From an uncultured delta proteobacterium (GTDB lineage Bacteria; Desulfobacterota; Syntrophorhabdia; Syntrophorhabdales; WCHB1-27): a DNA stretch of 64,000 nucleotides. The stretch lies in the NCBI GenBank assembly GCA_963810935.1, contig CAWEPK010000012.1, positions 288,001 to 352,000 of the forward strand, given 5' to 3'. The notes under the pieces were generated by a model. The model did not search any database, had not been told where the DNA came from, and saw nothing but the letters and a program-made list of their open reading frames with translations. The position numbers and the translations under genes are program-made. This document shows, in pieces, positions 7,840 to 39,066 of the stretch. The first letter of the stretch is position 1. Each line of letters starts with the position of its first letter.

Positions 7840-9006
7840 ATGAGCGGCTACCATAAGAGGGACCTCGATAACTTTCCCATGCACTCCATAAAGAGGGTTG
7901 ACCGCCCCACGACCGGCATCATCGATAACGCGGTAAAGAGGGTCGATGAGCGGGACAGCGGCTTCAACAAAGCCGCCCTCGGCGTCTACGGCCCCGTACT
8001 TGCGAGGGAAAGGAACCGCTTCGTGATGAAGCATCCCCTTTCCGGCGCGCTGGGGAACATGCAGGTGTTCCTGCGCAAAATCGTCGACGGAGTGGCGGCC
8101 GCCCAGCAGGCGCCCTTGCCCGAGGACCCGGAAGTCATCGCAAAGCATATCAAGGAGACGGCCTATTTTCTGAGGGCCGACGCAGTCGGCATTTGCAAGC
8201 TGCCGCCTTATGCAGTTTACTCGAAAAGCTTCCCGCACGGCGAGCCCGTCGAATTAACGCACAAGTACGCCATAGCGATACTGATCGACCAGGACTGGCG
8301 GACCTCAATGGCGACGAACGGCCACAACTGGATCAGCAACTCCATGAGTTTCATGGCCTATTCGGCCTCCGGGTTCATCGCCTGCATCCTTGCCGATTAT
8401 ATCCGCAGGCTCGGATACCCGGCCAGGGCGCACCACGCCCGCAACTACCAGGTGGTCGTCCCGCCTATCCTGCTCTGGGCTGGGCTCGGCGAGATGAGCC
8501 GCATCGGGGACTGCGTGCTCCATCCATTCATGGGGCCGAGGTTCAAAGCGGCAGTCGTTACTACGGACCTGCCGATGGCGGTGGACAAGCCCATCGAGTT
8601 CGGCGTCCAGGACTTTTGCTCGAAGTGCAAGAAATGCGCGCGGGCATGCCCTTCGGGCGCGTTGAGCGACGGCGGCAAGGAGATGTACAACGGCTACGAG
8701 CGCTGGCCGAGCGACATACGCAAATGCACCACGATGCGGGTAGGCAACCAGCGCGGCTCCGGCTGCGGCACCTGCATCAAGGCCTGCCCCTGGAACAAGC
8801 CTTACACACCCCTCCACAGGGCGGTAGGCTGGGCGGTGAGACATTCCGATATCGCGAGGAGCATGGCCATCCTCGGCGACGGCCTGATGGGCTACGGCAA
8901 GCCCCACCCGGACGAGCAATGGTGGCTCGACCTCGAAGAGGTGGACGGCGTAGTGCAGTCGCCCCGTAAGCACAAGGGGAAGCACCTCTGGTCCGCCGAC
9001 GACTAG
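7840..9006 (+). CDS. rdhA: Reductive dehalogenase (cobalamin, two Fe-S clusters), no Tat signal
   Basis: 'PMHSIKRVDRPTT', 'ARAHHARNY', 'AGLGEMSRIGD', 'GPRFK', 'TTDLP', 'FCSKCKKCARACP' and 'C...CGTCIKACPW'; ggagg RBS before the ATG at 7840. Confidence 0.85.
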   Translation: MSGYHKRDLDNFPMHSIKRVDRPTTGIIDNAVKRVDERDSGFNKAALGVYGPVLARERNRFVMKHPLSGALGNMQVFLRKIVDGVAAAQQAPLPEDPEVIAKHIKETAYFLRADAVGICKLPPYAVYSKSFPHGEPVELTHKYAIAILIDQDWRTSMATNGHNWISNSMSFMAYSASGFIACILADYIRRLGYPARAHHARNYQVVVPPILLWAGLGEMSRIGDCVLHPFMGPRFKAAVVTTDLPMAVDKPIEFGVQDFCSKCKKCARACPSGALSDGGKEMYNGYERWPSDIRKCTTMRVGNQRGSGCGTCIKACPWNKPYTPLHRAVGWAVRHSDIARSMAILGDGLMGYGKPHPDEQWWLDLEEVDGVVQSPRKHKGKHLWSADD

Positions 9007-9111
9007 TGCGGGCAACTGCAAGCGTCGCCTTGAAAGCTAAATAGCGAAATGGTAGATTATGCCTATGCACCTGCAAGGAAATAGGCGGGTCAGGCCGGAC
9101 CGGAGGTTGCC

Positions 9112-9756
9112 ATGAATGATCTCGGCAAGCTGGTCGGGGCGCTTCTCGACGGCGATACGGCCGTTTCCCTGGCCGAAGCAGGAGCCCTCAGGCGCGCAGG
9201 CGTGAGCGTCGAGCGCATCGTGACCGAAGGCGTCGAGTCCGCAATGCAATCCCTGGACGGCAAGTGCACCCTTGAACAGTTCAACCTCCTTGAGATCATG
9301 CTCGTCGGACGGGCGGTAACGGGGGTGATGAAATCCCTCTTTCCCGAGGGCATTCCGTCGACCGGCGCAGGCACCGTTGTCATCGCCGCCCTCGAAGGAG
9401 ACATCCACGACCTGGGCAAGAACATCCTGAAGATGGTCCTCACCGGCAACGGATATCGTGTCGCCGACTGCGGCAAAGACTGTCCCCTCGAAAGACTCCT
9501 CGACGCCGCCGAAAAAGAGATGCCCCTCGCCGTGGGGGTGAGCGGCCTTATCACGCCCGTCGTCCCTCTCGTCCGCCGCCTGCGTCCCCTCCTGAAGGAG
9601 CGCGGACTCGGACACATCAAGGTGATGGCCGGAGGGGCCGCCCTCAAGCAGTCCTCGGCGGAAGGATTGAATGTTGACTACGTCGCGGAATCCGCCTTCG
9701 ATGGGGCCCGATACATCGCGGGTATTGCGGGGAGGCCCGGCAATGAACAGCCTTGA
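9112..9756 (+). CDS. Cobalamin-binding corrinoid protein (methyltransferase cognate)
   Basis: DxHxxG motif 'EGDIHDLGKNI', 'VSGL', 'VMAGGAA'. Confidence 0.9.
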   Translation: MNDLGKLVGALLDGDTAVSLAEAGALRRAGVSVERIVTEGVESAMQSLDGKCTLEQFNLLEIMLVGRAVTGVMKSLFPEGIPSTGAGTVVIAALEGDIHDLGKNILKMVLTGNGYRVADCGKDCPLERLLDAAEKEMPLAVGVSGLITPVVPLVRRLRPLLKERGLGHIKVMAGGAALKQSSAEGLNVDYVAESAFDGARYIAGIAGRPGNEQP

Positions 9757-10756
9757 GCGCGTTCGCGCGTGCGTCGGCTTCGGGGAGACCGACCGCGTCC
9801 CGGTTATCCCCCAGGTTTTCGGACACGCCGCGATGATGCAGGGCGTCCCCCTGGACGCGTACGTTCAGGACGGCGACCTTATCGCCAGGTGCCAGGCCTA
9901 CGCGCTGGATAGATACCGCTATGACGCGGTTTTCACGGTGATGGACGTGAGCGTCGAGGCGGAAGCCATGGGCGCGTCCCTCAGGTACTTCACCAATGCA
10001 TATCCCGTGATCGAGACCCGGCCGCTCGCCGCAGCGGACGACTGGAGCACGTTCCCCATGCCCGATCCCGGCCGGGCCGGCCGGATGCCGGAGATGCTCA
10101 AGGCCTTGAAAATCCTGCGGCACGACCTCGGCGATAGGTTTCCGGTCGTCGGCTGCGTGATGGGACCACTGACGCTCGCGGCCCAGCTCCTCGGCGCGGA
10201 GGAAGTCCTCTACCTGGCCATCGACGAGCCCGAACGGTTCGCCGGCCTGCTCGATTTTTCTGCGGAAGTGGCGCTCAGGTTCGGCGTCGCGCAAATAGAG
10301 GCAGGCGCCCATATCCCGCTCGTCTTCGATCCCTTTGCGTCCCCCGCCGTCATTCCGGCACAGCTCTTCCGCGAGTTCGAGCTTCCACACCTTAAAAGGG
10401 TTTTTGAAGGTTTCGCGCGGCATGGCGCCCTCGCGAGCTGGCTCCATATAGCTGGACCCGCGCAGCCTATACTTCACCTCTACCCCTCCGCCGGCGTCGA
10501 TATCGCCAATTTCGACTATTGCGTTTCTCCCGCCGAGGCCCGGTACCGGCTTCCCGCCTCCTGTCTCGACGGGAACGTAAGACCTATGTCTTTCATCGAT
10601 GGAAGTCCCGAGGATATCCGCGCGGAGGCGTCATCGCTCCTCGGGTCGTTCCGGGACCGGCGCGGGTTCATTCTTTCGTCCGGATGCGAGATCCCGCCGG
10701 AGTCGAAGCCTGAAAACGTCGCAGCCCTCGTTGAAGCGGCCAAAAGCAAGAGTTAG
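9743..10756 (+). CDS. UroD-superfamily MtaA/CmuA-type methylcobamide methyltransferase
   Basis: 'DRVPVIP', 'VEAEAMGA', 'GRMPEMLKA', 'GPLTLA', 'LHIAG', 'FILSSGCEIP'; overlaps the corrinoid gene. Confidence 0.85.
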   Translation: MNSLERVRACVGFGETDRVPVIPQVFGHAAMMQGVPLDAYVQDGDLIARCQAYALDRYRYDAVFTVMDVSVEAEAMGASLRYFTNAYPVIETRPLAAADDWSTFPMPDPGRAGRMPEMLKALKILRHDLGDRFPVVGCVMGPLTLAAQLLGAEEVLYLAIDEPERFAGLLDFSAEVALRFGVAQIEAGAHIPLVFDPFASPAVIPAQLFREFELPHLKRVFEGFARHGALASWLHIAGPAQPILHLYPSAGVDIANFDYCVSPAEARYRLPASCLDGNVRPMSFIDGSPEDIRAEASSLLGSFRDRRGFILSSGCEIPPESKPENVAALVEAAKSKS

Positions 10757-10762
10757 CGCCGG

Positions 10763-12424
10763 ATGCCTTTCCTTTTCATCTCATCCGCAGAAGAAAGGAA
10801 AACCGTCGAGTTTACGGCAGGCCCCTCGCTCCGCGACCTGCTCGACTTGACGGACCTCCGGGTCCGCTCCGGCTGCCGTGGATCGGGCGCCTGCGGCCTT
10901 TGCCGCGTCCGTGTCGAGGAAGGGGAAATCGATGGCCCCACACAAAACGAGACTTTCCTCCTTTCGCAAGAAGACCTCCGCCGCGGAATCCGCCTCGCCT
11001 GTCAGGTCACGCCTAAACAGGACCTTAGCCTGACCATTGTCAACCCCGCGCCAAAATCGAGCTGGAGGAGCCTCAGGCCCGAGGAAGTTCCGGCCGGCCC
11101 CGGCTCTTTTCCGGCGCCTATCAGGAAAATCAAGGATGACAAACGCTACGGGGTCGCCGTGGACCTCGGGACCACCCACGTAAGCCTCTCCCTTTGGGAC
11201 ATGGCCGGGAATCGCCGGTTATCGGGGCGATTCGGCCGGAACCTGCAGGCAGGCTGCGGGTCCGACGTCATGACGAGGCTCGTATATGCCGACGCGTCCG
11301 CGGAGAACGCGGAAACGGCCGGGCGGGCGGCAAGGGATTCCATCAGCGACGGATTGCGCGACATCTGCTCCAGAGAGGGGTACGACCCGAAAAAGATCGG
11401 GCGGATAACGGTAGTAGCCAACACGGCCATGCTTTGCCTTCTCGCGCGACGCAACTTCGAGCTGCTCCTCCAGCCGGAATACTGGGCAAGGGAAATCGAC
11501 TGCGCACCCGCCTTCGTAAACGGCTGGTTCGAGGGCGCCGGCCTCGACGAAGGCGTTCCCATCGAGATTGTGCAGCCTCTCGCGGGCTTCGTCGGCTCGG
11601 ACCTCCTCGCGGGGGTCATAGCCACACGCATAACTGAAGGCGATAGTCCGGCCCTGCTCGTTGACTTCGGGACCAACTCCGAGATCGCCTTATGGGACGG
11701 GCGGCTGCTATGGGTAACCTCGGCAGCCGGGGGACCGGCCTTCGAAGGCAGCGGCATAAGCTGCGGTATGCCGGCAGGCGACGGGGCCGTTTACCGGATC
11801 GACGGACCGGACGGAGGACCGGGGCCTGTCGCCCGGGTAATCGGAAACGGCAGGGCCGAAGGTCTCTGCGGCTCGGGCATGGTTGACCTGGTGGCCTATA
11901 TGGTAAGGACGGGAAGGCTCGACAGGATCGGGAACTTCGGCGCCGGGTTCGATCACGGCCTCCCGGAAGAGATCCGCCGCATCATGCCGCAGAAGAAGGA
12001 CATCGATACGTTTCAGCGGGCGAAGGCAGCCATCGGCGCCGGCATAGAGCTCCTGTCGGCTCGCGCCGGGGCGCCGGCGGAGGACATCCGGCGGGTATCG
12101 ATCTGCGGCGTCTTCGGGCAGTATTTGAATGTGATCGACGCGATAGCCATCGGCCTGCTGCCTCCCGTGCCGCCCGAGCGCGTAGAGCTATGCGGCAACG
12201 CGGCGCTCGCCGGGTGCGAGAGCCTTCTTTTGTCGCACGAGAGAAGGAAATATTTGAACTTTCTGAGAAAGAAATGTAAGCTTGTCAATCTCTCACAAGC
12301 GCCCGAGTTCGAAGATCTGTTCCTCAGGAATCTCTATCTCCAACCCGGATATCGAGCGAAGCGGGCTGAGCGGAAGACGGAGGCGGGCTTACCGATGGAA
12401 GTAAGCGCCAAGCCGGATATTTGA
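10763..12424 (+). CDS. RACo/ASKHA ATP-dependent reductive activator of corrinoid proteins with N-terminal 2Fe-2S domain
   Basis: 'CRGSGACGLC...RLAC', 'AVDLGTT', 'GFVGSD', 'DFGTNSE', 'AAGGPAFEG', 'GLCGSG', 'GNAALAG'. Confidence 0.9.
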   Translation: MPFLFISSAEERKTVEFTAGPSLRDLLDLTDLRVRSGCRGSGACGLCRVRVEEGEIDGPTQNETFLLSQEDLRRGIRLACQVTPKQDLSLTIVNPAPKSSWRSLRPEEVPAGPGSFPAPIRKIKDDKRYGVAVDLGTTHVSLSLWDMAGNRRLSGRFGRNLQAGCGSDVMTRLVYADASAENAETAGRAARDSISDGLRDICSREGYDPKKIGRITVVANTAMLCLLARRNFELLLQPEYWAREIDCAPAFVNGWFEGAGLDEGVPIEIVQPLAGFVGSDLLAGVIATRITEGDSPALLVDFGTNSEIALWDGRLLWVTSAAGGPAFEGSGISCGMPAGDGAVYRIDGPDGGPGPVARVIGNGRAEGLCGSGMVDLVAYMVRTGRLDRIGNFGAGFDHGLPEEIRRIMPQKKDIDTFQRAKAAIGAGIELLSARAGAPAEDIRRVSICGVFGQYLNVIDAIAIGLLPPVPPERVELCGNAALAGCESLLLSHERRKYLNFLRKKCKLVNLSQAPEFEDLFLRNLYLQPGYRAKRAERKTEAGLPMEVSAKPDI

Positions 12425-12434
12425 GGGCCGGCTC

Positions 12435-15400
12435 ATGAAGGAAATGAATCCCCAGCGTCATACCGAGGCTTTCATAAAGGCGGCGCAATACATAGCGCGC
12501 CTCACCGCCCGGCAGGACCTTCTCGAAGAGCTGTCAAACATCATCGTCAAATATTTCGGAGCGGACTGGGTTGCCTTCGCCGGAGATAACGCGGGCGGAG
12601 AGATCGACCTTCGTCGATGCACGGTGGCTGACGAGAGCTTCCGCAGGGCGCTCCTCGAAAAAACAACGGAAACTATTCGGGACGTTTTCGATACGGGTTT
12701 CCTTGCTTCCATGGAGATCGAGCATCCCCCGGCTCGCAACGTTACCTTCCTGCCGCTCGGGGAAGGAAAGGAGAACCGGGTTGCAGCGATCATCGGCCAT
12801 TCGGAGCCTCCTTCCCAGGAGCTGCTCAACCTCTACCTGGCCCTTTCGGGACTCGCGGGCTCAACCATGGGCAGGATCGCGACCGAGAGGGAGCTGAGGC
12901 TGCACCAGGAACATCTCGAAGAGCTCGTGAGAGAAAGAACGGCCGCGCTGCAAACATCGAAGGACGTCATACAAGAGCAGCGTGAATGGCTGAGGGTTAC
13001 GCTGGCGAGCATCGGCGACGCGGTCATGGCCACGGACAAGAGCGGACGGGTTACCTTCCTGAACGCGGTCGCCGAAGGCCTGACCGGCTGGACCCTTGGT
13101 GGCGCAGCCGGGAGACCGGTCACCGAGGTGTTCCACATCATCAACGAGCAGAGCCGCAAGACGGTAGAAGACCCCGTCGGCAGGGTGCTACGTGAGGGGA
13201 TCATAGTTGGCCTGGCCAACCATACCGTGCTCGTAAGGAAAGATGGGACGGAGGTCGCCATCGACGACAGCGGCGCCCCCATAAAGGACGGGGACGGCAA
13301 CATCATGGGCGCAGTCCTCGTCTTCCGCGACATCACCGGGCGCAAAATGGATGAGGCGATGCTGCGCGAAAGCAAGACCCGTCTCGACCTTGCCCTCCGG
13401 TCCGCCGACATGGGCGCCTGGCACTGGGACATTCCGGCGGACAAGCGGTACTTCGACGACCAGGTCTGCCGCCTTTTGGGCATAGACCCGCAAACGTTCA
13501 CCGGAAACGCAGCGGAGTTCTTCGACGTGGTGCATCCCGACGACCGAGAGAACCTCCACGCGGCGCTTGCCCGGACCGTCTCGGAAAACGCCCCTTACGA
13601 GCCTGAATACCGCGCGGTCCTGCAGGACGGGACCGTCCATTACATTGCCGCGAGGGGAAGGCTTGTCCGTGACGGCGCAGGCAGACCTGCGCGGCTCAAC
13701 GGCATCATCTGGGACATCACGGAACGCAAGCACCGCGAGGCGCGCATCACAAGGCTCACGCACCTCTACGCCACGCTCAGCCGGGTGAATGAAGCCCTCG
13801 TGCGCATCCGCGACGGGGGCGCGCTGTACGAAGAGGTCTGCCGCATCATCGCGAAAGAAGGGGCATTCCCTCTCGTGTGGATCGGCGAGGTGAAAGACCG
13901 GCAGGTGGTGCCGGCTGCATACTGCGGGCCCGCCGCCGACTACCTCAGGGATATAAGAATAGAGGTGGACGGCGTGTTGGGTGACGGCCCCAGCGGGACC
14001 TGCATCCGCGAGGACCGACCCGTCGTCAACGACGACTTCGATATCAACCCTACCACCCTGCCGTGGCGCAAAGCAGCCCTAAGCCACGGCTTCAGGGCCA
14101 GCGCGTGTTTCCCCCTGCACCGTCAGGGCAAGGCCATAGGCGCCCTTACGATCTACGGCAGCCAGCCCCACGACTTCGACGCGGAGCAGGTGGAGCTGCT
14201 TCAGGCCCTCGCCGCCGATATCTCCTACGCCCTCGACACGCTGGAGCATGAAAAGGTGCGGAGCCGAGCCGAAACCGACCTCCAGAAGAGCCTCAAGCGG
14301 TTCGAACTCCTCGCCTACACTGCGAGCGAGCTGCTCCGTGCCCCGGACCCGCAGAAACTGGTCGACTCCCTGTGCCGGCAAGTGATGGACCAACTCGGCT
14401 GCCAGGCCTTCTTCAATTTCCTTGCGGTCGAAGAGATGGGAAGGCTCATGCTCAACGCCTATGCGGGTATCCCCGAAGAGGAGGCCCGGAAGATCGAATG
14501 GCTCGACTACGGGGTAGCCGTTTGCGGCTGTGCCGCCAGGGACGCCTGCCGGATAGTGGCCGAGCACATCCCTACTACGCCCGATCAGCGCACGGAGCTG
14601 GTAAAATCTTACGGCATCAAGGCGTACGCGTGCCATCCGCTCCTCGGGCCCGAAGGGTCGGTCATCGGCACTCTCTCCTTCGGCACCCGCGACAGGGAAA
14701 CCTTCAGCGACGAGGACCTCTCCCTGATGAAGGCAGTGGCCGACCAGGTGGCCGTGGCCATTATCCGCATGAGGGACGAGGACGCCGTGAAGCAGGTCCG
14801 CGACGGGCTTGAAGAGCGTGTGAAGGAAAGGACGGCGGAGCTTCAGGAGGCGTACGACAAGCTCATGCGCGAGTCCGAGGAACGGGAGAAGGTCGAGAGG
14901 CCAGCTCCGCCAGGCGCAGAAGCTGGAGGCCCTCGGGACGCTATCCGGCGGCATCGCCCACGACTTCAACAACATGCTCGCCTCCATCATCGGCTTTACC
15001 GAGATGATCAAGGACCATACCCCTGATGGGAGCCGGGAGCATCGGCATGCACTGAGGGTTCTGGAAGCAGGCATCAGGGGGCGCGACCTCGTCAGGCAGA
15101 TGCTGATGTTCTCGCGGCAGACCGAGCAGGAAAAGAAACCGCTTCGCCTGTCGAGTATCGTCAAGGAGAGCGCCAAGCTCCTCCGGGCATCGATACCGTC
15201 CACAGTCAGCATCAGGGTCGTCATAAAAAGCGAGTCGGGCGTCATCCTCGGCGATCCTACCCAGGTCTCGCAGGTCCTCATGAACCTTGCCACGAACGCG
15301 GCCTACGCGATGCGGGACAAGGGAGGCACCCTCGACATAGAGCTTTCCGATTTCAGCGTCTCGCCCACCAACGGGGACCCGCACGGCATAGAGCCGGGGC

Positions 15401-16068
15401 TATACATGCGGCTGACGGTCCGCGACACGGGCGCCGGCATACCCGCGGAGATCGCGGACAGGATATTTGACCCATTCTTCACGACAAAGAAAATCGGCGA
15501 GGGGACCGGCCTCGGCCTCTCGGTAGTGCTGGGCATCGTCAAGCAGGTCAGCGGGTATGTCACGGTGGACTCCGCACCGGGCGAAGGCTCGACCTTCAGC
15601 GTCTATTTTCCGAAGATCGTTGAAGAGCCGGTTGTGCAAGGGGCGGCCGGGGACGAGACTGCGCCCGCCGGCAAAGAGAGCATCCTCTTCGTGGACGATG
15701 AAGAGGCGCTCGTGGAGATGGGCGAGGAGCTTCTCGCGGAGCTTGGATACGAGGTCACTTCCCGCGCGGGGAGCAGGGAGGCCCTGGCCCTTTTCAGGCT
15801 CGACCCCTCCCGCTTCGACCTCGTGATAACCGACCAGACCATGCCAGATATGACCGGGGTCCAGCTCGCATCGGAGCTTCTCTCCATCCGGCCCGATATA
15901 CCCGTCATCCTTTGCACCGGCTTCAGCCACACGGCCAGCGAGGAGTCGGTGAGGGCGGCAGGCATAAAAGGGTTCGTCATGAAGCCCCTGACAAAACGGG
16001 AGCTTGCAAAGACGCTCAGAAAGGTCCTCGACGCGCGAGACGCAGACGAGCCCCCCGGCCGGCGATGA
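12435..16068 (+). CDS. Hybrid sensor histidine kinase: N-terminal GAF-like, PAS, PAS, GAF, GAF, HisKA, HATPase, REC (frameshift near 14900)
   Basis: PAS motifs (SIGDAV...VFRDIT; HPDDRE), H-box GGIAHDFNN recovered in the shifted frame, DTGAG/GTGLGL, REC 'ITDQTMPDMTG'. No TM segment. Confidence 0.9.
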
Positions 16069-16134: not shown

Positions 16135-16926
16135 GTGAAACCGACAAGCACCGAAATCAGGAAAGGCTTCTACAACAGGTCGCTGGAAAGGGCGCTCCAG
16201 ATACTCGATGTATTCAGTCTGGAGCGTCAGGCGCTCAGCAAAAGCGAGCTTTCCAAGCTGCTCGGCCTTTCAAGGGCCACTATCCTCAGGCTCTGCTCTA
16301 CCCTGGCCCAGTATGGCTATCTCAGGCAAGACCAGGAGACCAAGAAATATTCCCTCGGCATGCGGCTGTTCGAGCAGGGGAGCGTCGTTTTCAATTCCCT
16401 TTCGGTCCGGAAAGCCTCGGCCATGCCCCTCACCCGGCTCCAGCAGCGGATAGGCAAAACTATCTTTCTGTGCATCCTCGACAATGACGAGCTGCTTTAC
16501 ATCGACAAGAGGGATGACGGCAACAGCATCATTACGTTCACCTCCAAGATAGGCACCCGCCGGCCCCCTTACTGGGGGATGTGCGGCCCCATGCTCATGT
16601 CCCACCTCCCCGACGATGAGACAGAAAGGCTGCTGGCCAAACACCCGTTAAAGGCGCTGACAAGGCGATCGGTCACCGACAGGAAAGAATTCAAAGCCTG
16701 GCTGTGCAGGGTAAAGGACCAGGGATACGCAATCGACCCGGAGGCGACCCTCGAAGGGATCACGGGGGTAGCCGCCCCTGTCAGGGATTTTTCGGGAAAG
16801 GTCATAGCCTCCGTAGGAGCGGCGATCTTCTCCTCGTCCCTGACCGACGACATCCTGCCGACAATAATAAGCGCGGTTTCGGATACGGCCCTGACGGTCT
16901 CGATCAACCTGGGGTATAAACCGTGA
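16135..16926 (+). CDS. IclR family transcriptional regulator
   Basis: 'SLERALQILDVF' HTH and C-terminal 'GITGVAAPVRD'. Confidence 0.9.
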   Translation: MKPTSTEIRKGFYNRSLERALQILDVFSLERQALSKSELSKLLGLSRATILRLCSTLAQYGYLRQDQETKKYSLGMRLFEQGSVVFNSLSVRKASAMPLTRLQQRIGKTIFLCILDNDELLYIDKRDDGNSIITFTSKIGTRRPPYWGMCGPMLMSHLPDDETERLLAKHPLKALTRRSVTDRKEFKAWLCRVKDQGYAIDPEATLEGITGVAAPVRDFSGKVIASVGAAIFSSSLTDDILPTIISAVSDTALTVSINLGYKP

Positions 16927-17000
16927 GTTGCGCGCTTACGGCGTCGCGTCGCGCTCCAGCCCTTTTCAGAACAGCCGGACGCGCCGGCCGCTGTTTTTTC

Positions 17001-17066
17001 TTGACAAAGAACGAGGTTCCCACGTATTGTTTACTAAATGCACAGGGTATGTTCACTAGATGAACA
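17001..17066 (+). promoter_or_regulatory. Sigma70-like promoter with two tandem palindromic operator-like sites upstream of paaK
   Basis: TTGACA (17001) then TATTGT (17025); palindromes tgtttactaaatgcaca (17028-17044) and tgttcactagatgaaca (17050-17066). Confidence 0.55.
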
Positions 17067-17126
17067 CTTGAACAAAGCGTAAAGCTCTAGCCGCACCGGG
17101 AACTAAACCTAGATAAGGAGAGGCAT

Positions 17127-18459
17127 ATGGCTATCGATCCAAGTATCTATTGGAACCCCATTACCGAGACGCTGCCCAGGGAGAAGCTGCAGGAGCTTCA
17201 AGTCAGGAAGTTCAGGCGCATCTTCACGTGGGCGTATGAGAAATCGCCCTTTTACGGCAAGCTTTACAGGGACGCAGGCATAGAGCCCGGCGACATCAAG
17301 ACGCTTGCCGATATAAGGAAGGTGCCCAAGATAGATAAGGGTATGCTCCGGGACGTGCAGACCAGACCGCCCTTCCCTTACGGAGACATGCTCGCGGTGC
17401 CCCTGAAAGACGTAACCTGTTTCCGCCAGACGAGCGGCACTACCGGCACCCCCGTCTATCAGGCGGACACGTGGCAGGATTGGGAATGGTGGGCCGAGTC
17501 ATGGGCCTATATCCTTTATGCCCAGGGTTACAGGGACACGGACCGCATGTTCATCCCCTTCGGCTACAACATCTTCGTCGCCTTCTGGGCGTGCCATTAC
17601 GCAGCGGAAAAGCTGGGCTGCGAAGTCGTCCCCGGCGGCGTCCTCGACACAGAGGCGAGGGTCATGAAGATGAAGGAGCTTAAATGCACCGCCTTCGGCG
17701 CCACCCCTACCTACGTGCTCGGCCTTGCCGATACGGCGAAGAAGATAGGGATAGACCCGAGGAGCATAGGCATCAAGCGCATCACCTGCGCAGGCGAGCC
17801 CGGCGCGGCCATTCCGACGACCAAGCAGCGCATCGAGGACGCATGGGGCGCGAAGGTCTACGACCACATAGGCGCGACCGAGATAGGCGCCTGGAGCTAC
17901 ATGTGTACCCACCAGTCCAGGGGCCTGCACGTGAACGAGGCGTTCTTCCTGGTCGAGATCGAGGACGTGGAGACCGGCGAGATCATAGAAGAGCCGGGCA
18001 AGAACGGCAAGATGATCATCACCGCCTTCGACAGGATGGCAAAGCCGTGCATCCGCTTCGACTCGAAAGACGTCATCCGCTGGGCCGACTACTCGTGCGA
18101 CTGCGGCAGGACGTTCCGCATCATCGACGGCGGCGTGGTAGGCAGGGCGGACGACATAACGAAGGTAAAGGGCGTGCTCCTGGCCCCCACCGCGATAGAA
18201 GAGGTCGTGCGCAGCTTCACCGAGTCTGTCGGATGAGTACGAAGTGGTCGTTTCCAAGAAGGGCGATATCGACGACATCTCCCTGAAGGTAGAGATCAAG
18301 CCGGGCCTTGAGGGAGATAAGGAATCGATCCTCGCCAGGCTCAAGGACGAGCTGCGCGTAAAGACGAACCTCGGGTATAAGATCGAGGTCCATCCCCACG
18401 GCAGCCTTCCCAGGTATGAGGTGAAGGCGAAGAGATTCAAGGACCTGAGAAAACACTAG
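17127..18459 (+). CDS. paaK: Phenylacetate-CoA ligase family protein (frameshift near 18225)
   Basis: 'QTSGTTGTP', 'CAGEPG', 'YDHIGATE', 'GRADDITKVKGV', C-terminal 'LPRYEVKAKR'. Confidence 0.85.
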
Positions 18460-18471
18460 GAGGGGCAAGCC

Positions 18472-18651
18472 GTGATAGACAAAAAGAAACTGGAAGAAAT
18501 GGATGCGCGTATAAAACTGATCAGAAAGACCGCCGAGGAGTTGACGGCCACGTGCGAGGGGATCGAGGCGGTTAAGAAGAACGTAGTCCGCCTCCTTGCC
18601 AGCACCCGGATGCTCGAGCTCAATATAAGCGATGTGAAGGACCTGCTTTAG
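18472..18651 (+). CDS. Small hypothetical coiled-coil protein (59 aa), missing from the supplied ORF track
   Basis: ggagggg RBS, GTG start, MIDKKKLEEMDARIKLIRKTAEEL...MLELNISDVKDLL*. Confidence 0.7.
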   Translation: MIDKKKLEEMDARIKLIRKTAEELTATCEGIEAVKKNVVRLLASTRMLELNISDVKDLL

Positions 18652-18759
18652 AGCGAGCCGGCCGTTAACTGTGAGTCGTTGCCTCGTCCCTGCACCAGGC
18701 AAGGCGTTCAAAGTCAAAGCATCCCGGGGGGGACGCAGCACTTTAACAGGGGGGATTCA

Positions 18760-19245
18760 ATGGAAAACGCTCTCGACCTTTTCCTGAGGGTTTGCAAGGC
18801 GGTGCTTAACGTCGTTGCCAGCGCCGCCCTTACCTTCATGATGTTTCTTACCGTCGCCGACATTGTCTGCCGTGCCCTCGGCCACCCGCTCGTCGGCACC
18901 TACGAAGTAGTCAGCCTTGCACTCGCCCTCGTCATAGGGTTCGGCATCCCCAGGGTCTCTTTGGATAAGAGCCACGTCTACATGGAGATAGTCCTGGAGA
19001 AGGTCGGCATGAAGGCCAAGGCCGTCCTAAACACGTTCACGAGATTGATCTGCCTCTGCCTTTTCATCCTTATCTCCTACAACCTGTTCAGCATAGGCGC
19101 AGAGTTCCATACGTCAGGCGAGGTCTCTCCTACGATCAGGCTCCCCTTCTACCCGATAGCCTACGCGGTGGGGGTCTGCTGCTTCATAGAATGTGTGGTC
19201 TTCATCTCGCAGCTCGTGAAGATCTGGAGGGGCCATTATGAATGA
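18760..19245 (+). CDS. dctQ: TRAP transporter small permease
   Basis: Four TM segments, 'GTYEVV', 'HVYME'; overlaps dctM. Confidence 0.85.
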   Translation: MENALDLFLRVCKAVLNVVASAALTFMMFLTVADIVCRALGHPLVGTYEVVSLALALVIGFGIPRVSLDKSHVYMEIVLEKVGMKAKAVLNTFTRLICLCLFILISYNLFSIGAEFHTSGEVSPTIRLPFYPIAYAVGVCCFIECVVFISQLVKIWRGHYE

Positions 19246-20542
19246 GATAACTATAGGCATCGTCGCGCTCGTCATCCTTCTGGCCCTTTTCTCTACGGGC
19301 ATAGAGCTGGGGTTCGCCATGGCCGCGGTCGGCTTCTGCGGCTTCGCTTACTTCAACGGCTTATCAGCCGCAATGAACTTACTTGGAAGGGACGTCTACG
19401 ACGTCATCACGAACTACGGCTACACGGTCTTCCCCCTGTTCATCCTCATGGGCCAGATAGGCTTCAACGCCGGCATTGCGGTCAGACTCTATTCGGCCGC
19501 CAATAAGTTCGTTGGCCACATCCCGGGCGGCCTCGCCATGGCGACCGTCATAGGCGCCACGGGGTTCAAGGCGATCTGCGGCTCGTCGGCCGCGACCTCG
19601 GCCACCTTCGCTGCCGTCGCAGTCCCCGAGATGGACCGCTTCGGCTACGACAGGAGGCTCTCGACCGGCATCGTCGCAACGGTCGGAAGCTTGGGCTGCA
19701 TAATCCCTCCCTCCGTCGTCCTCATCATATTCGGCATATTGACCGAGCAGTCGATAGGCCAGCTCTTTCTGGCAGGCATGATCCCGGGCTTCCTGATCGC
19801 CTTCCTCTTCCTTTTCATCATCTACGGGTGGGCCAAGATATACCCGAAGGCCGCACCATTGTCCGCGAGGTCAAGCTGGGCAGATAGGGCAAGGAGCCTG
19901 CCGGAGGTCGTCTGGATCGTCCTCGTCTTCTTCCTCGTCGTGGGCGGCATGATGGCCGGCTACTTCACGCCTACGGAAGCGGGCGCGGTAGGCACCTTCG
20001 CCATCTTCATCCTATCGATAGTCACCCGTAACATGAACTTCAAGAAGTACGTCCTCTCGCTTGCCGAGGCCACCCGCACGGCAGGCATGATCCTGATGCT
20101 GATCGCAGGCTCGACCATACTCGGCCACTTCATCGCAGTGACCAACATACCCCAGGCCGTGGCCGACTGGATAGTCTCCCTGCCCCTGAACCGGTACGTA
20201 ATCATGATACTCATCTGCTTTGTCTACGAGCTGGGGGGCTCCTTTATCGACGATCTGGCCTTTATGATCCTTGCGACCCCTATCTTCTATCCGGCCGTCT
20301 TAAAGCTCGGCTTCAGCCCGTTATGGTTCGGCATAGTGATCGGCGTAGTCGTCATGATCGGGGTTGTCATCCCGCCTGTCGCAGTCTGCGTCTTCGTCGT
20401 AAAGAACATCACGAAGGAGCCGATGGGCCGCATATACAGAGGCGTGGCCCCGTTCCTGCTCTCTTTAGTCTTTGTCTGGGGCCTTATGTTCGTCTTTCCC
20501 CAGCTTGCCCTCTGGCTGCCCTCGGTCTTCTATGGCAAGTAA
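19238..20542 (+). CDS. dctM: TRAP transporter large permease
   Basis: 'PLFILMG', 'GSSAATSAT', 'IIPPS', 'TPTEAGAVG'. Confidence 0.92.
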   Translation: MNEITIGIVALVILLALFSTGIELGFAMAAVGFCGFAYFNGLSAAMNLLGRDVYDVITNYGYTVFPLFILMGQIGFNAGIAVRLYSAANKFVGHIPGGLAMATVIGATGFKAICGSSAATSATFAAVAVPEMDRFGYDRRLSTGIVATVGSLGCIIPPSVVLIIFGILTEQSIGQLFLAGMIPGFLIAFLFLFIIYGWAKIYPKAAPLSARSSWADRARSLPEVVWIVLVFFLVVGGMMAGYFTPTEAGAVGTFAIFILSIVTRNMNFKKYVLSLAEATRTAGMILMLIAGSTILGHFIAVTNIPQAVADWIVSLPLNRYVIMILICFVYELGGSFIDDLAFMILATPIFYPAVLKLGFSPLWFGIVIGVVVMIGVVIPPVAVCVFVVKNITKEPMGRIYRGVAPFLLSLVFVWGLMFVFPQLALWLPSVFYGK

Positions 20543-20595
20543 GAGGGGTAAATGGGGTATAAAGATACGCAAAAACCTTCAAAGGGGGTAACAAG

Positions 20596-21660
20596 ATGCT
20601 AAGAAAACTGACGGTCTTCCTATGTGTCCTCGCGCTTTGTCTCTCGTTCTCTTCGATTGCCGGCGCGGATGTGATCAAGCTGAAGCTGGCCAATTACTTC
20701 CCGCCCGTCCACATGAACTCGGTCATGCTCGGCAAGTGGGCCGACGGGCTTAACAAGAAGCTCGCAGGCAAGGTGGAGATCACCCAGTATACGGGCGGCA
20801 CGCTTCTTACCGCCCCCAAGATCGCCCCGGGCGTGCTGACGGGCATTGCCGACATCGGCTTCTCCCACTGCTCGTACACCCGCGGCCGCTTCCCCGTAAT
20901 GGAGATCATGGAGCTGCCTATAGGCTTCCCGAGCCCCTGGATCGCGGGCCACGTCTCCAACGACTTCTATGACAAGTTCAAGCCGAAGGAATGGGACGCC
21001 TTCCATCCCATCATGTTCTCGACGAGCCCCGTCAACGTCCTCCAGTCGCTCTCAAAGCCCGTAAAGACCTTGGAAGACATAAAGGGCATGAAGCTACGGG
21101 GCCCCGGCAGGATAGGCGACATAGCCCGCGCCCTGGGCGCAGTCCCGATGCCTATCGAGATCGTCGATACCTATGAGGCCCTGCGCCGCGGCGTAGTGGA
21201 GGGCAACTTCGGTCCGTTAGAGCAGCTCAAAGGGTTCAAGATCGGCGAGGTAGAGAAGTACGTCACCGCCTCCTGGAAGATAGGCAGCGTCTTCTCCTTC
21301 TACGTAATCATGAACAAGAACAAGTGGAACAGCCTGCCCGCAGACGTCCAGAAGATCATAACCGACTACTCCAAGGGCGAGTTCTTAGACCAGTGGCTTG
21401 TCGAGTGGAACCGCATTGACATCGAGGGCGGCGACTGGTTCAAAAAGCAGGGCGGCCAGATAATCAACATCTCCGACGCCGAGAGCGCCAGGTGGGTAAA
21501 AGCAGCACAGCCCGTCATCGCAGACTTCAAAAAAGACATGATCGCCAAGGGCTACAAGGCCGCCGAGGTCGATGCCTGGATAGCCTTCATCAAAGAGCGC
21601 ATCGAATACTGGAAGGCCCAGGAAAAGGCAAAGAAGATACCTACGGCGTATCAGTACTAG
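20596..21660 (+). CDS. dctP: TRAP transporter substrate-binding protein
   Basis: Signal peptide; 'YTGGTL', 'GRFP', 'KGMKLR', 'YEALRRGVVEG', 'MNKNKWNSLP'. Confidence 0.9.
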   Translation: MLRKLTVFLCVLALCLSFSSIAGADVIKLKLANYFPPVHMNSVMLGKWADGLNKKLAGKVEITQYTGGTLLTAPKIAPGVLTGIADIGFSHCSYTRGRFPVMEIMELPIGFPSPWIAGHVSNDFYDKFKPKEWDAFHPIMFSTSPVNVLQSLSKPVKTLEDIKGMKLRGPGRIGDIARALGAVPMPIEIVDTYEALRRGVVEGNFGPLEQLKGFKIGEVEKYVTASWKIGSVFSFYVIMNKNKWNSLPADVQKIITDYSKGEFLDQWLVEWNRIDIEGGDWFKKQGGQIINISDAESARWVKAAQPVIADFKKDMIAKGYKAAEVDAWIAFIKERIEYWKAQEKAKKIPTAYQY

Positions 21661-28696: not shown

Positions 28697-29596
28697 TCAT
28701 GCCTTGCAGCCCTTGACCAGGCCCTTCAACAACGCCCATTCTTCATCCACTTCCTTTTGCAGACGGGTGACGTCGGCGGGAGTGAAGTGGCGGAAGCGGC
28801 CCTGGATGCGGGTGTATTCTTCGACCGGGAGCCCCTTCGGCTCGTGCGTGATCCTGTACTCGCTTCCGTCGATCACTTCGTAAAGCGGGAAGATGCGCGT
28901 CTCTACCGCAAGCTGGGCGGCACGCGCGGACATGTGCTCGGGCATGCGCCAGCCTGTAGAGCAGGGGGTGAGCACGTGGAGGAACTTCATGCCCTTCGTC
29001 GCCTTCGCTTTCCTCACCTTCTCTATCAGGTCCTCAGGGTGGCCTATGGAGGCGGTAGCCGCGTACGGCATCCTGTGGGCCGCGATGATCTGCATGAACT
29101 TCTTCTTCCTGCCGCGCCTGCCTCCGGGGGTGGTCATAGTCCAGGTGTTCTGCGGCGTTGAGGAGCTCGACTGGATGCCCGTATTCATATACGCCTCGTT
29201 GTCGAGGCAGACGTAAATAAAATTATCGTTGCGGTCCGCCGCGCCGGAGAGCGATTGCAGGCCGATGTCGAACGTGCCGCCGTCGCCCGCGAAAGTGACC
29301 GTGGTAACATCCTCGCGCCCCTGGAGGTGCAGGGCGGCCGAGATGCCTGATGCCGTAGGCGCTGCGATCTCGAAGGCAGAGTGGAAGCAGGGCACCGCGA
29401 ACGTGCTGTTCGGGTAGGTGGCGCTTATGACGCCCACGCACGAAGGCAGGATCACCATGACCGTTTCCTTGCCAAGCACCTTCAGGACAAGGCGCAGCGT
29501 AGTCGCCTCTCCGCAGCCCGGGCAGGCCATGTGGCCGCACCGCATGTACTCCTGTTCTTCGCTTCGATCCATCTCAGCCACAGCTTCCACAAACAT
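28697..29596 (-). CDS. porB: 2-oxoacid:acceptor oxidoreductase beta subunit (TPP)
   Basis: 'GHMACPGCG', 'GDGGTFDIG', 'DNEAYMNTG'. Confidence 0.9.
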   Translation of the reverse strand: MFVEAVAEMDRSEEQEYMRCGHMACPGCGEATTLRLVLKVLGKETVMVILPSCVGVISATYPNSTFAVPCFHSAFEIAAPTASGISAALHLQGREDVTTVTFAGDGGTFDIGLQSLSGAADRNDNFIYVCLDNEAYMNTGIQSSSSTPQNTWTMTTPGGRRGRKKKFMQIIAAHRMPYAATASIGHPEDLIEKVRKAKATKGMKFLHVLTPCSTGWRMPEHMSARAAQLAVETRIFPLYEVIDGSEYRITHEPKGLPVEEYTRIQGRFRHFTPADVTRLQKEVDEEWALLKGLVKGCKA

Positions 29597-29606
29597 GCTT
29601 ACCCCC

Positions 29607-30755
29607 TTACTTCCTCACAAACGTCGGTCTATCCAGGCGCGATTTGCCGCTCAGGGCGTCCAACGCCATCTGCTCGATCATGTCGGGCGAGACGTCTGCG
29701 CCGCAGATGCCCGCGATGTAGCCCGTGACGACGGGCGGCCGGTCCATACCGTAGAGCGCGCTCTTTAGCTCCTGGCACCAGATGCCGCCGTTGCCCAGCG
29801 AGATATTCCTGTCGATCACGGCCACTTTCGGCACGTTCGCGAGTGCTTCCCTGACCTCTTCGCGCGGGAACGGCCGCAGGGCCTTCAGCTTCAGCAAGCC
29901 GGCGGCTACGCCGTTGGCGCGCATTGCGGCCACGGCCACCCGCGCAGTACTGGTCATGGCGCCGCTGGTGGCGATGACGATCTCGGCGCCGTGCGTATCG
30001 ACCGCCTCGATCGGGCCGTATCCCCTGCCTATGATCTTCTCGTAATCCTCGTTCGCCTCCCGGATGATCGGCCGCGTTGCGTCCATGTCCTCGAAGCTCC
30101 GCTGCCGGTAGCCCATGTACTGCTCCGGGCTGACCACGTTCGATATATACGCCGGCGCATCCGTATCGAAGCGCGTCGGCACGCGGAAAGGCGGCAGGTA
30201 AGCGTCGATTGCCTCCTGGTCGGGTATCTCGACAGGCTCGATGAAGTGCGACGTGAAGAATCCGTCGATGGCGACGAGCACCGGCAGGAGCGCGTTCTCC
30301 GCGATCCTGTAAGCCTGTATCACCGTGTCGAAGGCCTCCTGGGCGTCCTCGCAGTAGAACTGGAGCCAGCCCGTGTCGCGCTGGGAGAGGCTGTCCGATT
30401 GGTCGCTCCCGAAGGCCCAGGGCACAGCCAGCACGCGGTTGACGTTGCACATCACGATGGGCACCCTGTTGCCGGATGCGAAGTGGAGCATCTCGTGCAT
30501 CAGGGCAAGGCCCTGCGACGCAGTGGCGGTGAACGTCCGTACGCCCGTCAGGGAGGCGCTGATGCAGGCGGCCATGGCGGAGTGCTCCGACTCGGTACGC
30601 ATCATCACGCCGGCCAGCTTGCCTTCGTTCTCCATATCGGAGAGCTTCTCGTATATGGGCGTCTGCGGAGTTATGGGGTAGGCGGCAACGAACTGCACCT
30701 TCGCCAACCGCACCGCCTCGGCAACCGCGTAGTTACCTGATATAAGCTGTCTCAT
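29607..30755 (-). CDS. porA: 2-oxoacid:acceptor oxidoreductase alpha subunit
   Basis: 'AYPITPQT', 'ESEHSA', 'TATASQGL'. Confidence 0.9.
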   Translation of the reverse strand: MRQLISGNYAVAEAVRLAKVQFVAAYPITPQTPIYEKLSDMENEGKLAGVMMRTESEHSAMAACISASLTGVRTFTATASQGLALMHEMLHFASGNRVPIVMCNVNRVLAVPWAFGSDQSDSLSQRDTGWLQFYCEDAQEAFDTVIQAYRIAENALLPVLVAIDGFFTSHFIEPVEIPDQEAIDAYLPPFRVPTRFDTDAPAYISNVVSPEQYMGYRQRSFEDMDATRPIIREANEDYEKIIGRGYGPIEAVDTHGAEIVIATSGAMTSTARVAVAAMRANGVAAGLLKLKALRPFPREEVREALANVPKVAVIDRNISLGNGGIWCQELKSALYGMDRPPVVTGYIAGICGADVSPDMIEQMALDALSGKSRLDRPTFVRK

Positions 30756-32515: not shown

Positions 32516-32520
32516 CTCGT

Positions 32521-33069
32521 CTAGCTCCTTTTCACCATGCGGGTCAGCTCATAGGCGCGCTTTGCTGCGGCGATATTCTCCGCCACCTTGGCGGGCACGG
32601 TCTCGCTTATCGCCTTTTCCAGGTGCTCCAAAGATACTGCGCCCGTTGCTTTCGCGTATGCGCCGAGGATGGCCGTGTTGATCGTGGTCCCCAGGCCCGC
32701 CTCTTCCGACACGGCCAGCGCGTCGACAACTGCCACGCGGGACGCGGCGAGGCCCGTGAAATCGGTATCGGTAAGTGCGTTATTAATAAGGATGAGGCCG
32801 CCCGCCTTGATCGTGGACGCCACTTCATTGGCCTCGACGAGGTCGGGGGCCAGATAAATCAGCTCGTCCGCCTGCCTGATCTCGCACTTCAGGTAGATCT
32901 TCTTGTCGTCAACGCGCAGGAAGCTCGCCACAGGCGCGCCCCGCCTCTCCCCTCCGAACACGGAGAAGCACTGGGGGTACTTCCCCATCAGGAAGTATAC
33001 CTTTGCGAGGATCTGGGACGCGATTACCGCGCCCTGCCCTCCTCTTCCGATGAATTTTATCTCCGTCAT
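32521..33069 (-). CDS. porC: 2-oxoacid:acceptor oxidoreductase gamma subunit
   Basis: 'GRGGQGAV', 'FGGERRGAPV'. Confidence 0.9.
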   Translation of the reverse strand: MTEIKFIGRGGQGAVIASQILAKVYFLMGKYPQCFSVFGGERRGAPVASFLRVDDKKIYLKCEIRQADELIYLAPDLVEANEVASTIKAGGLILINNALTDTDFTGLAASRVAVVDALAVSEEAGLGTTINTAILGAYAKATGAVSLEHLEKAISETVPAKVAENIAAAKRAYELTRMVKRS

Positions 33070-37967: not shown

Positions 37968-38353
37968 TTATCAACCCCCTCCACACATCCAAAGCCGTAT
38001 GATCCGCTCTGTAGGACGATACCACTGAAATCTTCCTTCATGCACATCATGCCATTACAGAGGCCGATTGTGCAACAACAAAACCAATGACGCCATAAAG
38101 GCAATAATTGCGGCAGAATTAAGATGAGGGGTCCTCAGTTACGGAGAGGAAACGGAAGTCGAGCACCGTATGTTTTACGGCGGCTAAAAGCACCGGGGCC
38201 GGTATCCCGTATAAATATTTATTCTTCTTGACAGCGTTCGGGATTTTTAGAGACGTTGTTTCCTAATGTTTATTACTGTCGCCTTCTTTTTTCCTCCGGC
38301 TACCTTCTACAAAACAAATCACATTAGGCAACAACGTCCCCGATGTTGGTAAA

Positions 38354-39059: not shown

Positions 39060-39066
39060 GTTTAAT

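Follow-up and report, generated by a model that had tools for sequence, protein, structure and literature searches.

Corrinoid methyltransferase systems have so far been treated as catabolic machinery, and to our knowledge B12-based sensing is known only for light and for B12 itself. The nearest published entity to the locus described here is the type 1 mlp cluster (Kountz and Balskus, PMC10418091), which, going by the available part of that paper, shares with it a URO-D family methyltransferase (MT) resembling SCMT and MtaA, a corrinoid protein (CP) and an activase, and likewise has no tetrahydrofolate (H4folate) methyltransferase. The same source describes a monomeric CP and a bacterial-type Ram/RACE activase in type 1 mlp clusters, which occur widely among anaerobes and are believed to be transferred as one unit (PMC10418091). 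The locus of this study lies in a 64,000-nt stretch of DNA (G000:C12:288001-352000, hereafter the window, from the start of which positions are counted) and consists of four genes on the plus strand, in the order CP, MT, RACo and kinase. Across the loci compared, linkage of CP, MT and the N-terminal domain of the kinase (N-domain) is obligate, the signalling outputs are variable, fusions exist, and there is no conserved catabolic partner or context. We propose that this module is a widespread, self-contained and conserved signalling unit, of which the window holds one copy.

In the window, the CP (9112-9756) and MT (ATG at 9743) genes overlap by 14 nt, spacers of 6 nt and 10 nt separate MT from RACo and RACo from the kinase (start at 12435), and an RdhA-like open reading frame (ORF) ends at 9006, which is 105 nt upstream of CP. 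The four genes, their positions and their spacing, as reported in the initial annotation of the window, were all confirmed from the window sequence, and the family calls made there for CP, MT, RACo and the RdhA-like protein are supported by Pfam/NCBIfam matches.

The context of related modules was collected from two directions. A pattern scan of 185,579 species genomes, seeded with the N-domain, gave 29 loci, which were annotated by tblastn with the window proteins and with a hidden Markov model of the domain. The MT was directly upstream in all 26 informative loci, the other three contigs ending inside RACo, and the CP was upstream in 23 of the 23 loci with enough DNA. The second set was seeded with the MT and comprised metagenome contigs carrying the best 80 of 367 MT relatives (57–78% identity). 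Here the CP was found upstream in all 67 loci with at least 650 nt of upstream DNA, and the N-domain within 2.5 kb downstream in 35 of the 36 loci where the DNA continues for 2200 nt or more beyond the MT; it also appears in 10 loci with a shorter downstream stretch. Mean identity to the window proteins over 59 loci was 63% for CP, 62% for MT, 50% for RACo and 40% for the N-terminal kinase segment, and the RACo and kinase or signalling ORFs overlap by 4 nt in four loci (L021, L046, L050 and L052). Carriers of the module belong to the Desulfobacterota, Acidobacteriota, Nitrospirota, Actinomycetes and Planctomycetota, along with a Methanomassiliicoccaceae archaeon, and include Syntrophorhabdales, Syntrophaceae, Syntrophobacteraceae, Desulfobacteraceae, Thermodesulfovibrionales and metagenome-assembled genomes (MAGs) named only as ‘delta proteobacterium’. 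Long carrier contigs are those of an Actinomycetes member (3.56 Mb) and a Thermoguttaceae member (1.34 Mb).

Closer to the window, ortholog-level MTs (59–78% identity) were found in seven same-family genomes among 61 related genomes, G000 included, namely G019, G008, G017 (two copies), G014, G004, G010 and G021 (fragments). The remaining matches in the 61 genomes were all at or below 35% identity, and no MT orthologue was found in three same-genus genomes that are 66–92% complete. The CP-MT-RACo-kinase order is kept in six same-family loci, whose kinases all have the N-domain followed by HisKA-HATPase-REC, with PAS and GAF domains that vary in number and are missing from L026. The flanks of the same-family loci differ entirely, holding pilins, TPP enzymes, a P-type ATPase, CheB/CheR or a molybdopterin oxidoreductase. 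In the flanks of these six loci and of 15 phylogenetically spread loci, genes of the Pterin_bind, MtrH, MttB and MtaB families were absent by Pfam and no transporter or downstream catabolic gene was conserved; further REC, Hpt and kinase genes were often found downstream of the module in the 15. The module has neither a second corrinoid methyltransferase nor a DNA-binding response regulator as a conserved companion. A second methyltransferase as the usual partner of the trio, a case raised in the initial annotation, was not seen, with one URO-D gene per module.

Two observations were made beside the same-family modules. Genome G017 contains a decayed second copy (L027/L032, G017:C3, about 1451500-1471400), in which the CP is in pieces, the MT has an in-frame TGA and the kinase is cut down to the N-domain, and the same contig also has an intact copy at a distance of 250 kb. 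In G010, a PocR-PAS-HisKA-HATPase-REC hybrid kinase (L026:14346-17024, equal to L028:10179-12323, minus strand) is convergent to the module kinase; in the mec cassette, the kinase MecA has PocR as its sensor domain.

What follows the N-domain differs widely between carriers. A profile search of 1.84 billion representatives placed the N-domain family at 374 clusters at E ≤ 1e-3, 330 at E ≤ 1e-10 and 208 at E ≤ 1e-30, almost always at residues 1–165, and the window's own genome holds exactly one N-domain, that of the window kinase. A Pfam census of 72 of the representatives listed, taken in rank order from those of at least 380 aa up to a total of 50,000 residues, gave HATPase_c in 60, HisKA in 49, REC in 21, HisKA_3 in three, SpoIIE in three, GGDEF in two, and HisKA_2, HD_5, Hpt, PocR and Fer2 in one each. 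In a word-indexed search with kinase residues 1–170 among longer proteins, 41 of 45 matches span the N-domain (the other four, P0042-P0045, match the coiled-coil stretch alone) and all 41 are signalling proteins, with HisKA with or without REC and Hpt, HisKA_3 (P0010, P0041), HWE (P0015) or SpoIIE (P0022) as output. The initial annotation had suggested checking whether the trio is conserved beside varied signalling outputs that share the N-domain, and this is what was found, the outputs being HisKA, HisKA_3, HisKA_2/HWE, SpoIIE, GGDEF and HD. Those seen in module context include HWE (L037), SpoIIE (L042) and a minimal N-domain-HK-REC form (L026).

The N-domain is N-terminal in these 41 proteins, except in P0022, where about 50 residues precede it, and in fusions with RACo or its Fer2 domain. 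Full RACo is fused in P0011 and P0012 (RACo-N-domain-HisKA_3-HATPase), and Fer2 alone in the Fer2-N-domain-HK proteins P0017, P0018, P0035, L045 and L048. In the Methanomassiliicoccaceae MAG, RACo, N-domain and HATPase_c form one 935-aa ORF directly after CP and MT (L056:6411-9218), for which no HisKA family was reported. RACo is usual in the module but dispensable, and the invariant core is CP, MT and N-domain: among the 45 MT-seeded modules with an N-domain, RACo is full in 34, reduced to Fer2 in four and missing from seven, and the corresponding numbers for the 26 N-domain-seeded modules are 22, three and one. The three Fer2-only loci of the latter set (L044, L045 and L048) are all from Nitrospirota, and the RACo-less one (L042) is on the 3.56-Mb Actinomycetes contig and has the SpoIIE output.

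We judge, with moderate confidence, that the module is a corrinoid-state sensor feeding phosphorelays, in which a GAF-fold domain reads the state of the corrinoid cycle. The dedicated MtaA-like MT would load a methyl group onto the MtaC-type CP or unload it, and RACo, using ATP and low-potential electrons, would keep the CP in the reactive Co(I) cycle. The module-specific GAF-fold N-domain of the adjacent signalling protein would then read which state the CP is in, whether Co(I), Co(II), methyl-Co(III) or a complex with RACo or MT, and in the window the PAS/GAF-rich hybrid histidine kinase would pass the signal to a phosphorelay. We infer both this flow of information, from CP and MT to the GAF domain, and the identity of the signal, which could be a methylated thiol or selenide, another methyl donor, or the redox/energy state conveyed through the Co(II)/Co(I) couple. 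RACo acts on the Co(II) form of its corrinoid-protein substrate, as with RACo and CoFeSP, which would provide a route for transmitting redox/energy state and fits the fusions. Methyl-sulfur and methyl-selenium signals are plausible because the MT is kin to the thiol-methylating SCMTs and ClMlp2 has selenide activity, the latter as stated in the legend of Fig. 6 of PMC10418091. Halomethanes have no specific support as the ligand.

The main rival, to which we give a low though appreciable probability, is a small metabolic methyl-transfer unit with its own regulator. Under this explanation CP, MT and RACo would metabolise some methyl donor, for instance a methylated compound of sulfur or selenium, in the manner of MtsA/MtsB, MtpA/MtpC or mlp, and the GAF protein would separately sense the substrate or redox and control expression only. 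The closest solved relative of the MT is indeed a coenzyme M (CoM) methyltransferase, MtaA, and carrier genomes mostly hold other corrinoid systems. The accessible parts of the literature also present single-MT systems and SCMT-like clusters without a folate methyltransferase as metabolic (10.1101/548461; PMC10418091), and place regulator kinases beside corrinoid MT genes in the mec cassette and in Methanosarcina mts loci (10.1101/2021.08.30.458270; PMC11784639). The corrinoid-state sensor is nevertheless preferred to a catabolic operon with a regulator because the linkage is obligate in both search directions, the N-domain occurring only with CP-MT(-RACo) in every context seen, and because the surroundings vary, without a conserved catabolic partner or DNA-binding response regulator and with no transporter or downstream catabolic gene recurring in the flanks. 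It is also preferred because the outputs vary, from hybrid and HWE kinases to PP2C and the cyclic di-GMP (c-di-GMP) and other enzymes of the GGDEF and HD forms, and because natural fusions join RACo or Fer2 directly to the sensor domain, which would be unusual for a mere regulator.

Several points weigh against a sensing role. A single MtaA-type MT with a CP can be a complete metabolic system, so the lone MT is no argument for sensing, and MtsA/MtsB is a further single-methyltransferase system. Corrinoid systems are described, in the accessible part of one report, as using ‘one or two cognate methyltransferases’ (bioRxiv 10.1101/548461), and type 1 mlp clusters, with an SCMT-like MT, a CP and an activase and without a folate methyltransferase, can be metabolic as far as their description is available (PMC10418091). 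At least three further MtaC-like matches were found in four of the five carrier genomes tested, and only G063 has just the module CP and a MetH-like match. A methyl sink elsewhere in the cell is available, since carriers hold other MtaC-like proteins and the window's own genome has ACS and pterin-binding MTs. A full RACo is lacking from 11 of 45 and 4 of 26 modules, and the suggestion of the initial annotation that RACo resets the device therefore cannot be universal. Conserved Cys and His are absent from the N-domain, which thus gives no hint of a cofactor, and its contact with CP, MT or RACo is itself presumed. The sole miss of the MT-seeded set, L112 (849-4972), has CP and MT followed by convergent hemD, hemC and hemA, with the N-domain absent from the whole 4976 nt. 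Finally, context covers 29 and 80 loci out of 374 N-domain and 1341 MT clusters, with the GGDEF and HD forms outside it.

The argument of the initial annotation from a catabolically incomplete gene set is consequently a weak one, as single-MT systems are known and the genome has pterin-binding MTs and ACS elsewhere. Carrier genomes with no other corrinoid system, which would exclude a metabolic role, were considered as well; this was not borne out, with at least three further MtaC-like matches in four of five.

The ~150-aa N-domain, with the start of the signalling helix, is encoded at 12435..12929 (plus strand). The initial annotation rightly called it unusual, as kinase residues 1–170 have no Pfam or NCBIfam match, and the GAF models PF01590, PF13185 and PF13492 match only residues 464–776 of the kinase. 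Its motifs are FIKAAQYIxRLT, SGFLAS and LNLYLAL.G.AG, and its invariant residues are A17, Q18, Y19, G88, F89, L90, P107, L131, L135 and L154. An AlphaFold2 model from 26 sequences (pLDDT 88.9, pTM 0.83) gave 74 PDB matches at E ≤ 1e-3 in Foldseek. Those listed are mostly GAF domains, including the GAFs of PtsP, CodY, DosS, phosphodiesterase and phytochrome, plus LuxR-type autoinducer-binding domains, with E from 3.8e-5, TM 0.49–0.69 and 8–16% identity. The nearest clusters in the ESM Atlas are also GAF. By its predicted structure, the N-domain is a divergent GAF fold. A predicted complex of the CP (alignment A5) and the N-domain (A2) scored 0.29 and 0.21, the mark being 0.32; made without controls, the prediction weighs neither way. 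Methylation of an N-domain cysteine by the MT was set aside, because the domain has no conserved Cys or His.

The fold also bears on an explanation in which MT and CP are a ligand-making accessory, in the pattern of RsbQ/RsbP, that methylates or demethylates a small molecule whose product binds the GAF pocket. Small-molecule binding is common among GAF domains, the Foldseek matches including GAFs that bind cGMP, heme and bilin, and the high conservation of CP and MT across phyla would fit one universal substrate. The best-conserved N-domain residues, however, are in the first and last helices (AQY, LNLYLAL) and not clearly in the pocket, the RACo and Fer2 fusions are left unexplained, and there is no candidate ligand, making this explanation improbable.

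The MT (9743..10756, plus strand) is an MtaA/SCMT-like protein of 337 aa with the signature WLH(I/T)AG(P) and a full-length URO-D (TIM-barrel) fold, matching PF01208 with 243.9 bits over profile positions 12–344 of 346. It falls below the cut-offs of the mtaA_cmuA model (TIGR01463, 156.3 vs 235.4 bits) and the MtaA model (NF040654, 120 vs 400), and its closest solved relative is MtaA of M. mazei (4ay7, E 5e-26). The place of MtaA's zinc motif, H-x-C...C, in the MT was read from the 4ay7 alignment. Only part of it is retained. LHICG of MtaA faces LHIAG (H235-I-A237) of the window MT, so that the first Cys is Ala, as pointed out in the initial annotation, and PGCGI faces SSGCEI, so that the second zinc cysteine is kept as C315. 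This is a property of the family, since WLHIAGP is invariant in 13 of 13 module MTs from several phyla and Ala stands at the first zinc-Cys site in all 76 of the 80 metagenome copies that cover it (WLHIAGP 68, WLHTAGP seven, WLHIAGH one). An own-genome paralogue (L020), adjoining a CP and a second MT, reads LHICGK. Cys315 is invariant in module MTs. Cys138 and Cys274, which are kept in every row of the 13-row alignment, are missing from the aligned positions of MtaA; judging from barrel topology, these two could complete a rearranged metal site. Of 8000 candidates scored, 1341 clusters fall into the family at E ≤ 1e-20; the best 120 relatives are 333–343 aa long with at least 61% identity, and named relatives carry only ‘uroporphyrinogen decarboxylase (family protein)’. 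Enzymes of the MtaA/CmuA family transfer methyl groups between a methyl-corrinoid and a thiol or halomethane, and for the MT such an activity is putative.

The CP (9112..9756, plus strand) is MtaC-like, 214 aa long, with 66.1 bits to PF02310 and a GDIHDLG motif. All motifs of the B12-binding Rossmann domain (DxHxxG, SxL and GG) are present, and G96-D97-x-H99-D100-L101-G102, S144-G-L146 and G174-G175 are invariant in a 39-sequence alignment (A5). It scores 96.5 bits on TIGR02370, under the curated cut-off of 215.3, and the N-terminal cap PF02607 (B12-binding_2) was not reported for it at E ≤ 1e-3. Module CPs keep three cysteines, C52 in KCTLEQFNLLEIML without exception and C120 and C124 (both in VDCGKDCP) in almost every case. 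RACo (10763..12424, plus strand) is a reductive activase of 553 aa with a 2Fe-2S ferredoxin domain, a RACo middle region and an ASKHA ATPase, all three regions being present with 41.8 bits for PF00111 (Fer2), 95.0 for PF17651 (Raco_middle) and 203.2 for PF14574 (RACo_C_ter).

The hybrid sensor histidine kinase (12435..16068, plus strand) has, after removal of one base, about 1210 aa by Pfam and translation. Its domain order is GAF-fold N-domain, signalling (S) helix, PAS, PAS, GAF, GAF, HisKA, HATPase_c and REC, with HATPase_c at 15250-15615 (PF02518, 80.2 bits), the receiver domain at 15682-16017 (PF00072, 74.7 bits) and, by translation and the HisKA match, the phospho-accepting His codon of the H-box (GGIAHDFNN) at 14959..14961, all on the plus strand. 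The length of ~1200 aa given in the initial annotation holds for the corrected gene; the window sequence splits the kinase into two ORFs, 12435-15026 and 14974-16068, that lie in different frames, and this frameshift, which falls just before the H-box, had been overlooked. Three-frame translation and short-read contigs from public runs, compared over 14300-15500, place a one-base insertion at 14896..14903 (plus strand). Contig X1, which has 1 other letter over 675 nt, lacks one base at 14901, and the strain-variant contig X3 (12 other letters) lacks one at 14898; X1 may derive from the sample behind the assembly and is then independent in method and not in origin. With the base removed, HisKA, HATPase_c and REC are in one continuous frame, as expected of a hybrid histidine kinase, and orthologous kinases are single ORFs of 615–1454 aa.

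The frameshift in the window kinase, and the O-demethylase-like sets elsewhere in the genome, could be taken to mean that an incomplete catabolic O-demethylase or halomethane system lies by chance beside a pseudogene kinase. The short-read contigs lack the extra base, which makes the frameshift an assembly error and rules out a pseudogene, and the adjacency recurs in 35 of 36 informative loci of the MT-seeded set and 26 of 26 of the N-domain-seeded set, so that this explanation is scarcely credible.

The RdhA-family neighbour (7840..9006, plus strand, ~388 aa from the first plausible Met) lies outside the module, between a class I SAM methyltransferase gene upstream and the CP gene downstream. 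It scores 197.8 bits on TIGR02486 against a cut-off of 160.35 and has two 4Fe-4S motifs, which places it in the family, and Pfam finds only Fer4 (dicluster) domains on it. A twin-arginine (RR) motif was not found near any start of the ORF, so it does not qualify as the respiratory type, and rdhB was not seen beside the gene, with no search aimed at rdhB. In the rdhA-CP spacer, a promoter-like site with TG (TTGAAA-17-TAGATT, 9030..9058, plus strand) gives weak evidence of a promoter, as the scan was not above chance (4 sites vs 2.1 ± 1.6 in shuffles; terminators 9 vs 8.9). Right after the kinase, window positions 16135-21660 encode a set for the uptake and activation of aromatic acids, made up of an IclR/PcaR-type regulator, a PaaK-like aryl-CoA ligase and a TRAP transporter (DctQMP); this set is not conserved with the module.

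These neighbours underlie an alternative, put forward in the initial annotation as a pairing with RdhA, in which the trio and RdhA form a two-route organohalide locus acting on, for example, halomethanes or halogenated methoxy-aromatics. The RdhA-family gene is only 105 nt upstream, and the IclR, PaaK-like ligase and TRAP genes come after the kinase, yet homologues of these window genes were found in none of the 109 related loci (29 and 80) at E ≤ 1e-6, nor in the six same-family orthologous loci, and the RdhA-like protein has no twin-arginine signal. A conserved RdhA/IclR/PaaK/TRAP link was therefore rejected and the pairing dropped. The rdhA adjacency is incidental, and a two-route locus is highly improbable.

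The genome of the window contains 10 URO-D, seven Pterin_bind, three RACo and one CdhC/ACS match, the Pterin_bind matches including four paralogues of ~272 aa, among which one lies on the window's own contig, ~44 kb upstream. The initial annotation's statement that there is a single MT, with no pterin-binding (H4folate) MT and no Wood-Ljungdahl genes, thus holds for the locus and the window and fails for the genome, in which Pterin_bind and CdhC/ACS are present. Other corrinoid sets of this genome lie at G000:C8:16775-19480 (L020), C12:240097-247775, C17:72540-85140 and C9:112504-114023. One set has a CP and two full-length URO-D MTs that keep H-x-C, and others have half-length O-demethylase-like URO-D proteins, CPs and ~272-aa pterin-binding MTs, one O-demethylase-like set being ~41–48 kb upstream of the window.

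Further features were observed in the rest of the window. A KaiC-like double-domain ATPase lies beside a PAS-PAS-HisKA-HATPase-REC hybrid kinase and a sigma-70 paralogue at 47870-53235 (minus strand), with a second sigma-70 paralogue at 53786-54652. The region 34636-42385 is probably an inserted island; its GC is low (0.46–0.49 vs ~0.58), and it encodes an IS1595-family transposase (39335-40234) and an HD-CE/TPR/SEC-C protein of 1075 aa. Exoprotein genes with two-partner secretion (TPS), YDG and GLUG motifs (1513, 552 and 334 aa) at 55388-62556 (minus strand) resemble a two-partner-secretion or filamentous-haemagglutinin-like system. Two clusters of 2-oxoacid:ferredoxin oxidoreductase type (POR_N/PFOR_II, TPP_enzyme_C and pyridine-nucleotide-disulfide oxidoreductase), at 28697-33069 (minus strand) and 43090-47147 (plus strand), each stand beside a GntR/FCD regulator.

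The finding adds a conserved and widely spread module in anaerobes of peat, soil and sediment. More broadly, it is quite possible, though we put this forward tentatively, that the module embodies a new sensory principle, with the oxidation or methylation state of a corrinoid protein as an intracellular signal that is set by the MT, repaired by RACo and read by a GAF domain. This reading would span kinases, phosphatases and c-di-GMP enzymes in at least six phyla, including an archaeon. If true, the connection of a corrinoid methyl cycle to two-component, partner-switching and c-di-GMP outputs would be a new class of signalling input in bacteria and archaea, and would give functions to mis-annotated URO-D proteins, an unannotated GAF-like family (374 clusters) and orphan RACo genes. 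It would also offer a handle on how anaerobes sense methylated sulfur and selenium compounds or their redox/energy state. As all four proteins are small and soluble, the proposal lends itself to direct tests in vitro.

The module is a new arrangement of known parts, and no description of it was found in the full-text literature searched, which leaves out most subscription-journal papers. The soluble CoM methyltransferase systems of methanogens (MtaABC, MtsA/MtsB and MtpA/MtpC), with RamA, have the same three kinds of protein, but their MTs have the H-x-C...C zinc site and feed methanogenesis, whereas the module MT has Ala for the first Cys, its hosts are mostly not methanogens, and a signalling protein is obligate. 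In H-NOX/NosP systems with NahK-type hybrid kinases, too, a separate cofactor protein is encoded in an operon with a cytoplasmic output protein, in many cases a hybrid histidine kinase, and the sensor is constant and the outputs vary. H-NOX and NosP use heme and sense nitric oxide, whereas the cofactor protein of the module is a corrinoid methyl carrier with loading and repair enzymes.

Type 1 mlp clusters are, on the available text, made up of at least Mlp2 and Mlp3 and often three Mlps, against one MT in the module (PMC10418091); by this measure the module is not a type 1 mlp cluster, having one URO-D gene each, counted without clade placement. They are 73% Firmicutes and associated with sulfur and selenium metabolism genes (PMC10418091), unlike the module, whose hosts are mostly Desulfobacterota, Nitrospirota and Acidobacteriota and which has an H-x-A MT and an obligate GAF-domain signalling protein. 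Neither ‘two-component’ nor ‘sensor’ is used in the main text of that paper in its available form (PMC10418091).

The mec cassette of anaerobic dichloromethane degraders, so far as its description could be consulted, likewise has a CP, an MT of the MtaA/CmuA family, RACo and a sensor histidine kinase (10.1101/2021.08.30.458270). That cassette has ten genes, with four MTs including an MtrH type, the PocR-domain kinase MecA, the DNA-binding MecD and a transporter (10.1101/2021.08.30.458270), whereas the module has four genes, one MT, another sensor domain and no conserved regulator or RdhA. In Dehalobacter, according to the same text, mecABC homologues adjoin a reductive dehalogenase, an adjacency that parallels that of rdhA in the window, in a different system (10.1101/2021.08.30.458270).

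On the sensing side, the MsmS and RdmS proteins of Methanosarcina, called ‘methyltransferase-associated sensor kinases’, are GAF/PAS kinases beside corrinoid MT genes and are linked to methyl-sulfide metabolism; in the part of the source available, sensing is by heme or thiols in the GAF domain of the kinase itself, the mts genes are acted on jointly with Msr regulators, and the kinases have no H-box, no module N-domain and no CP-MT-RACo-kinase operon (PMC11784639). CarH/LitR and AerR, in the descriptions available, sense light or B12 through adenosylcobalamin (AdoCbl) or hydroxocobalamin (OH-Cbl) and act directly on transcription, with no MT or activase, but they use a B12-binding Rossmann domain for sensing and not for catalysis, as is proposed for the module.

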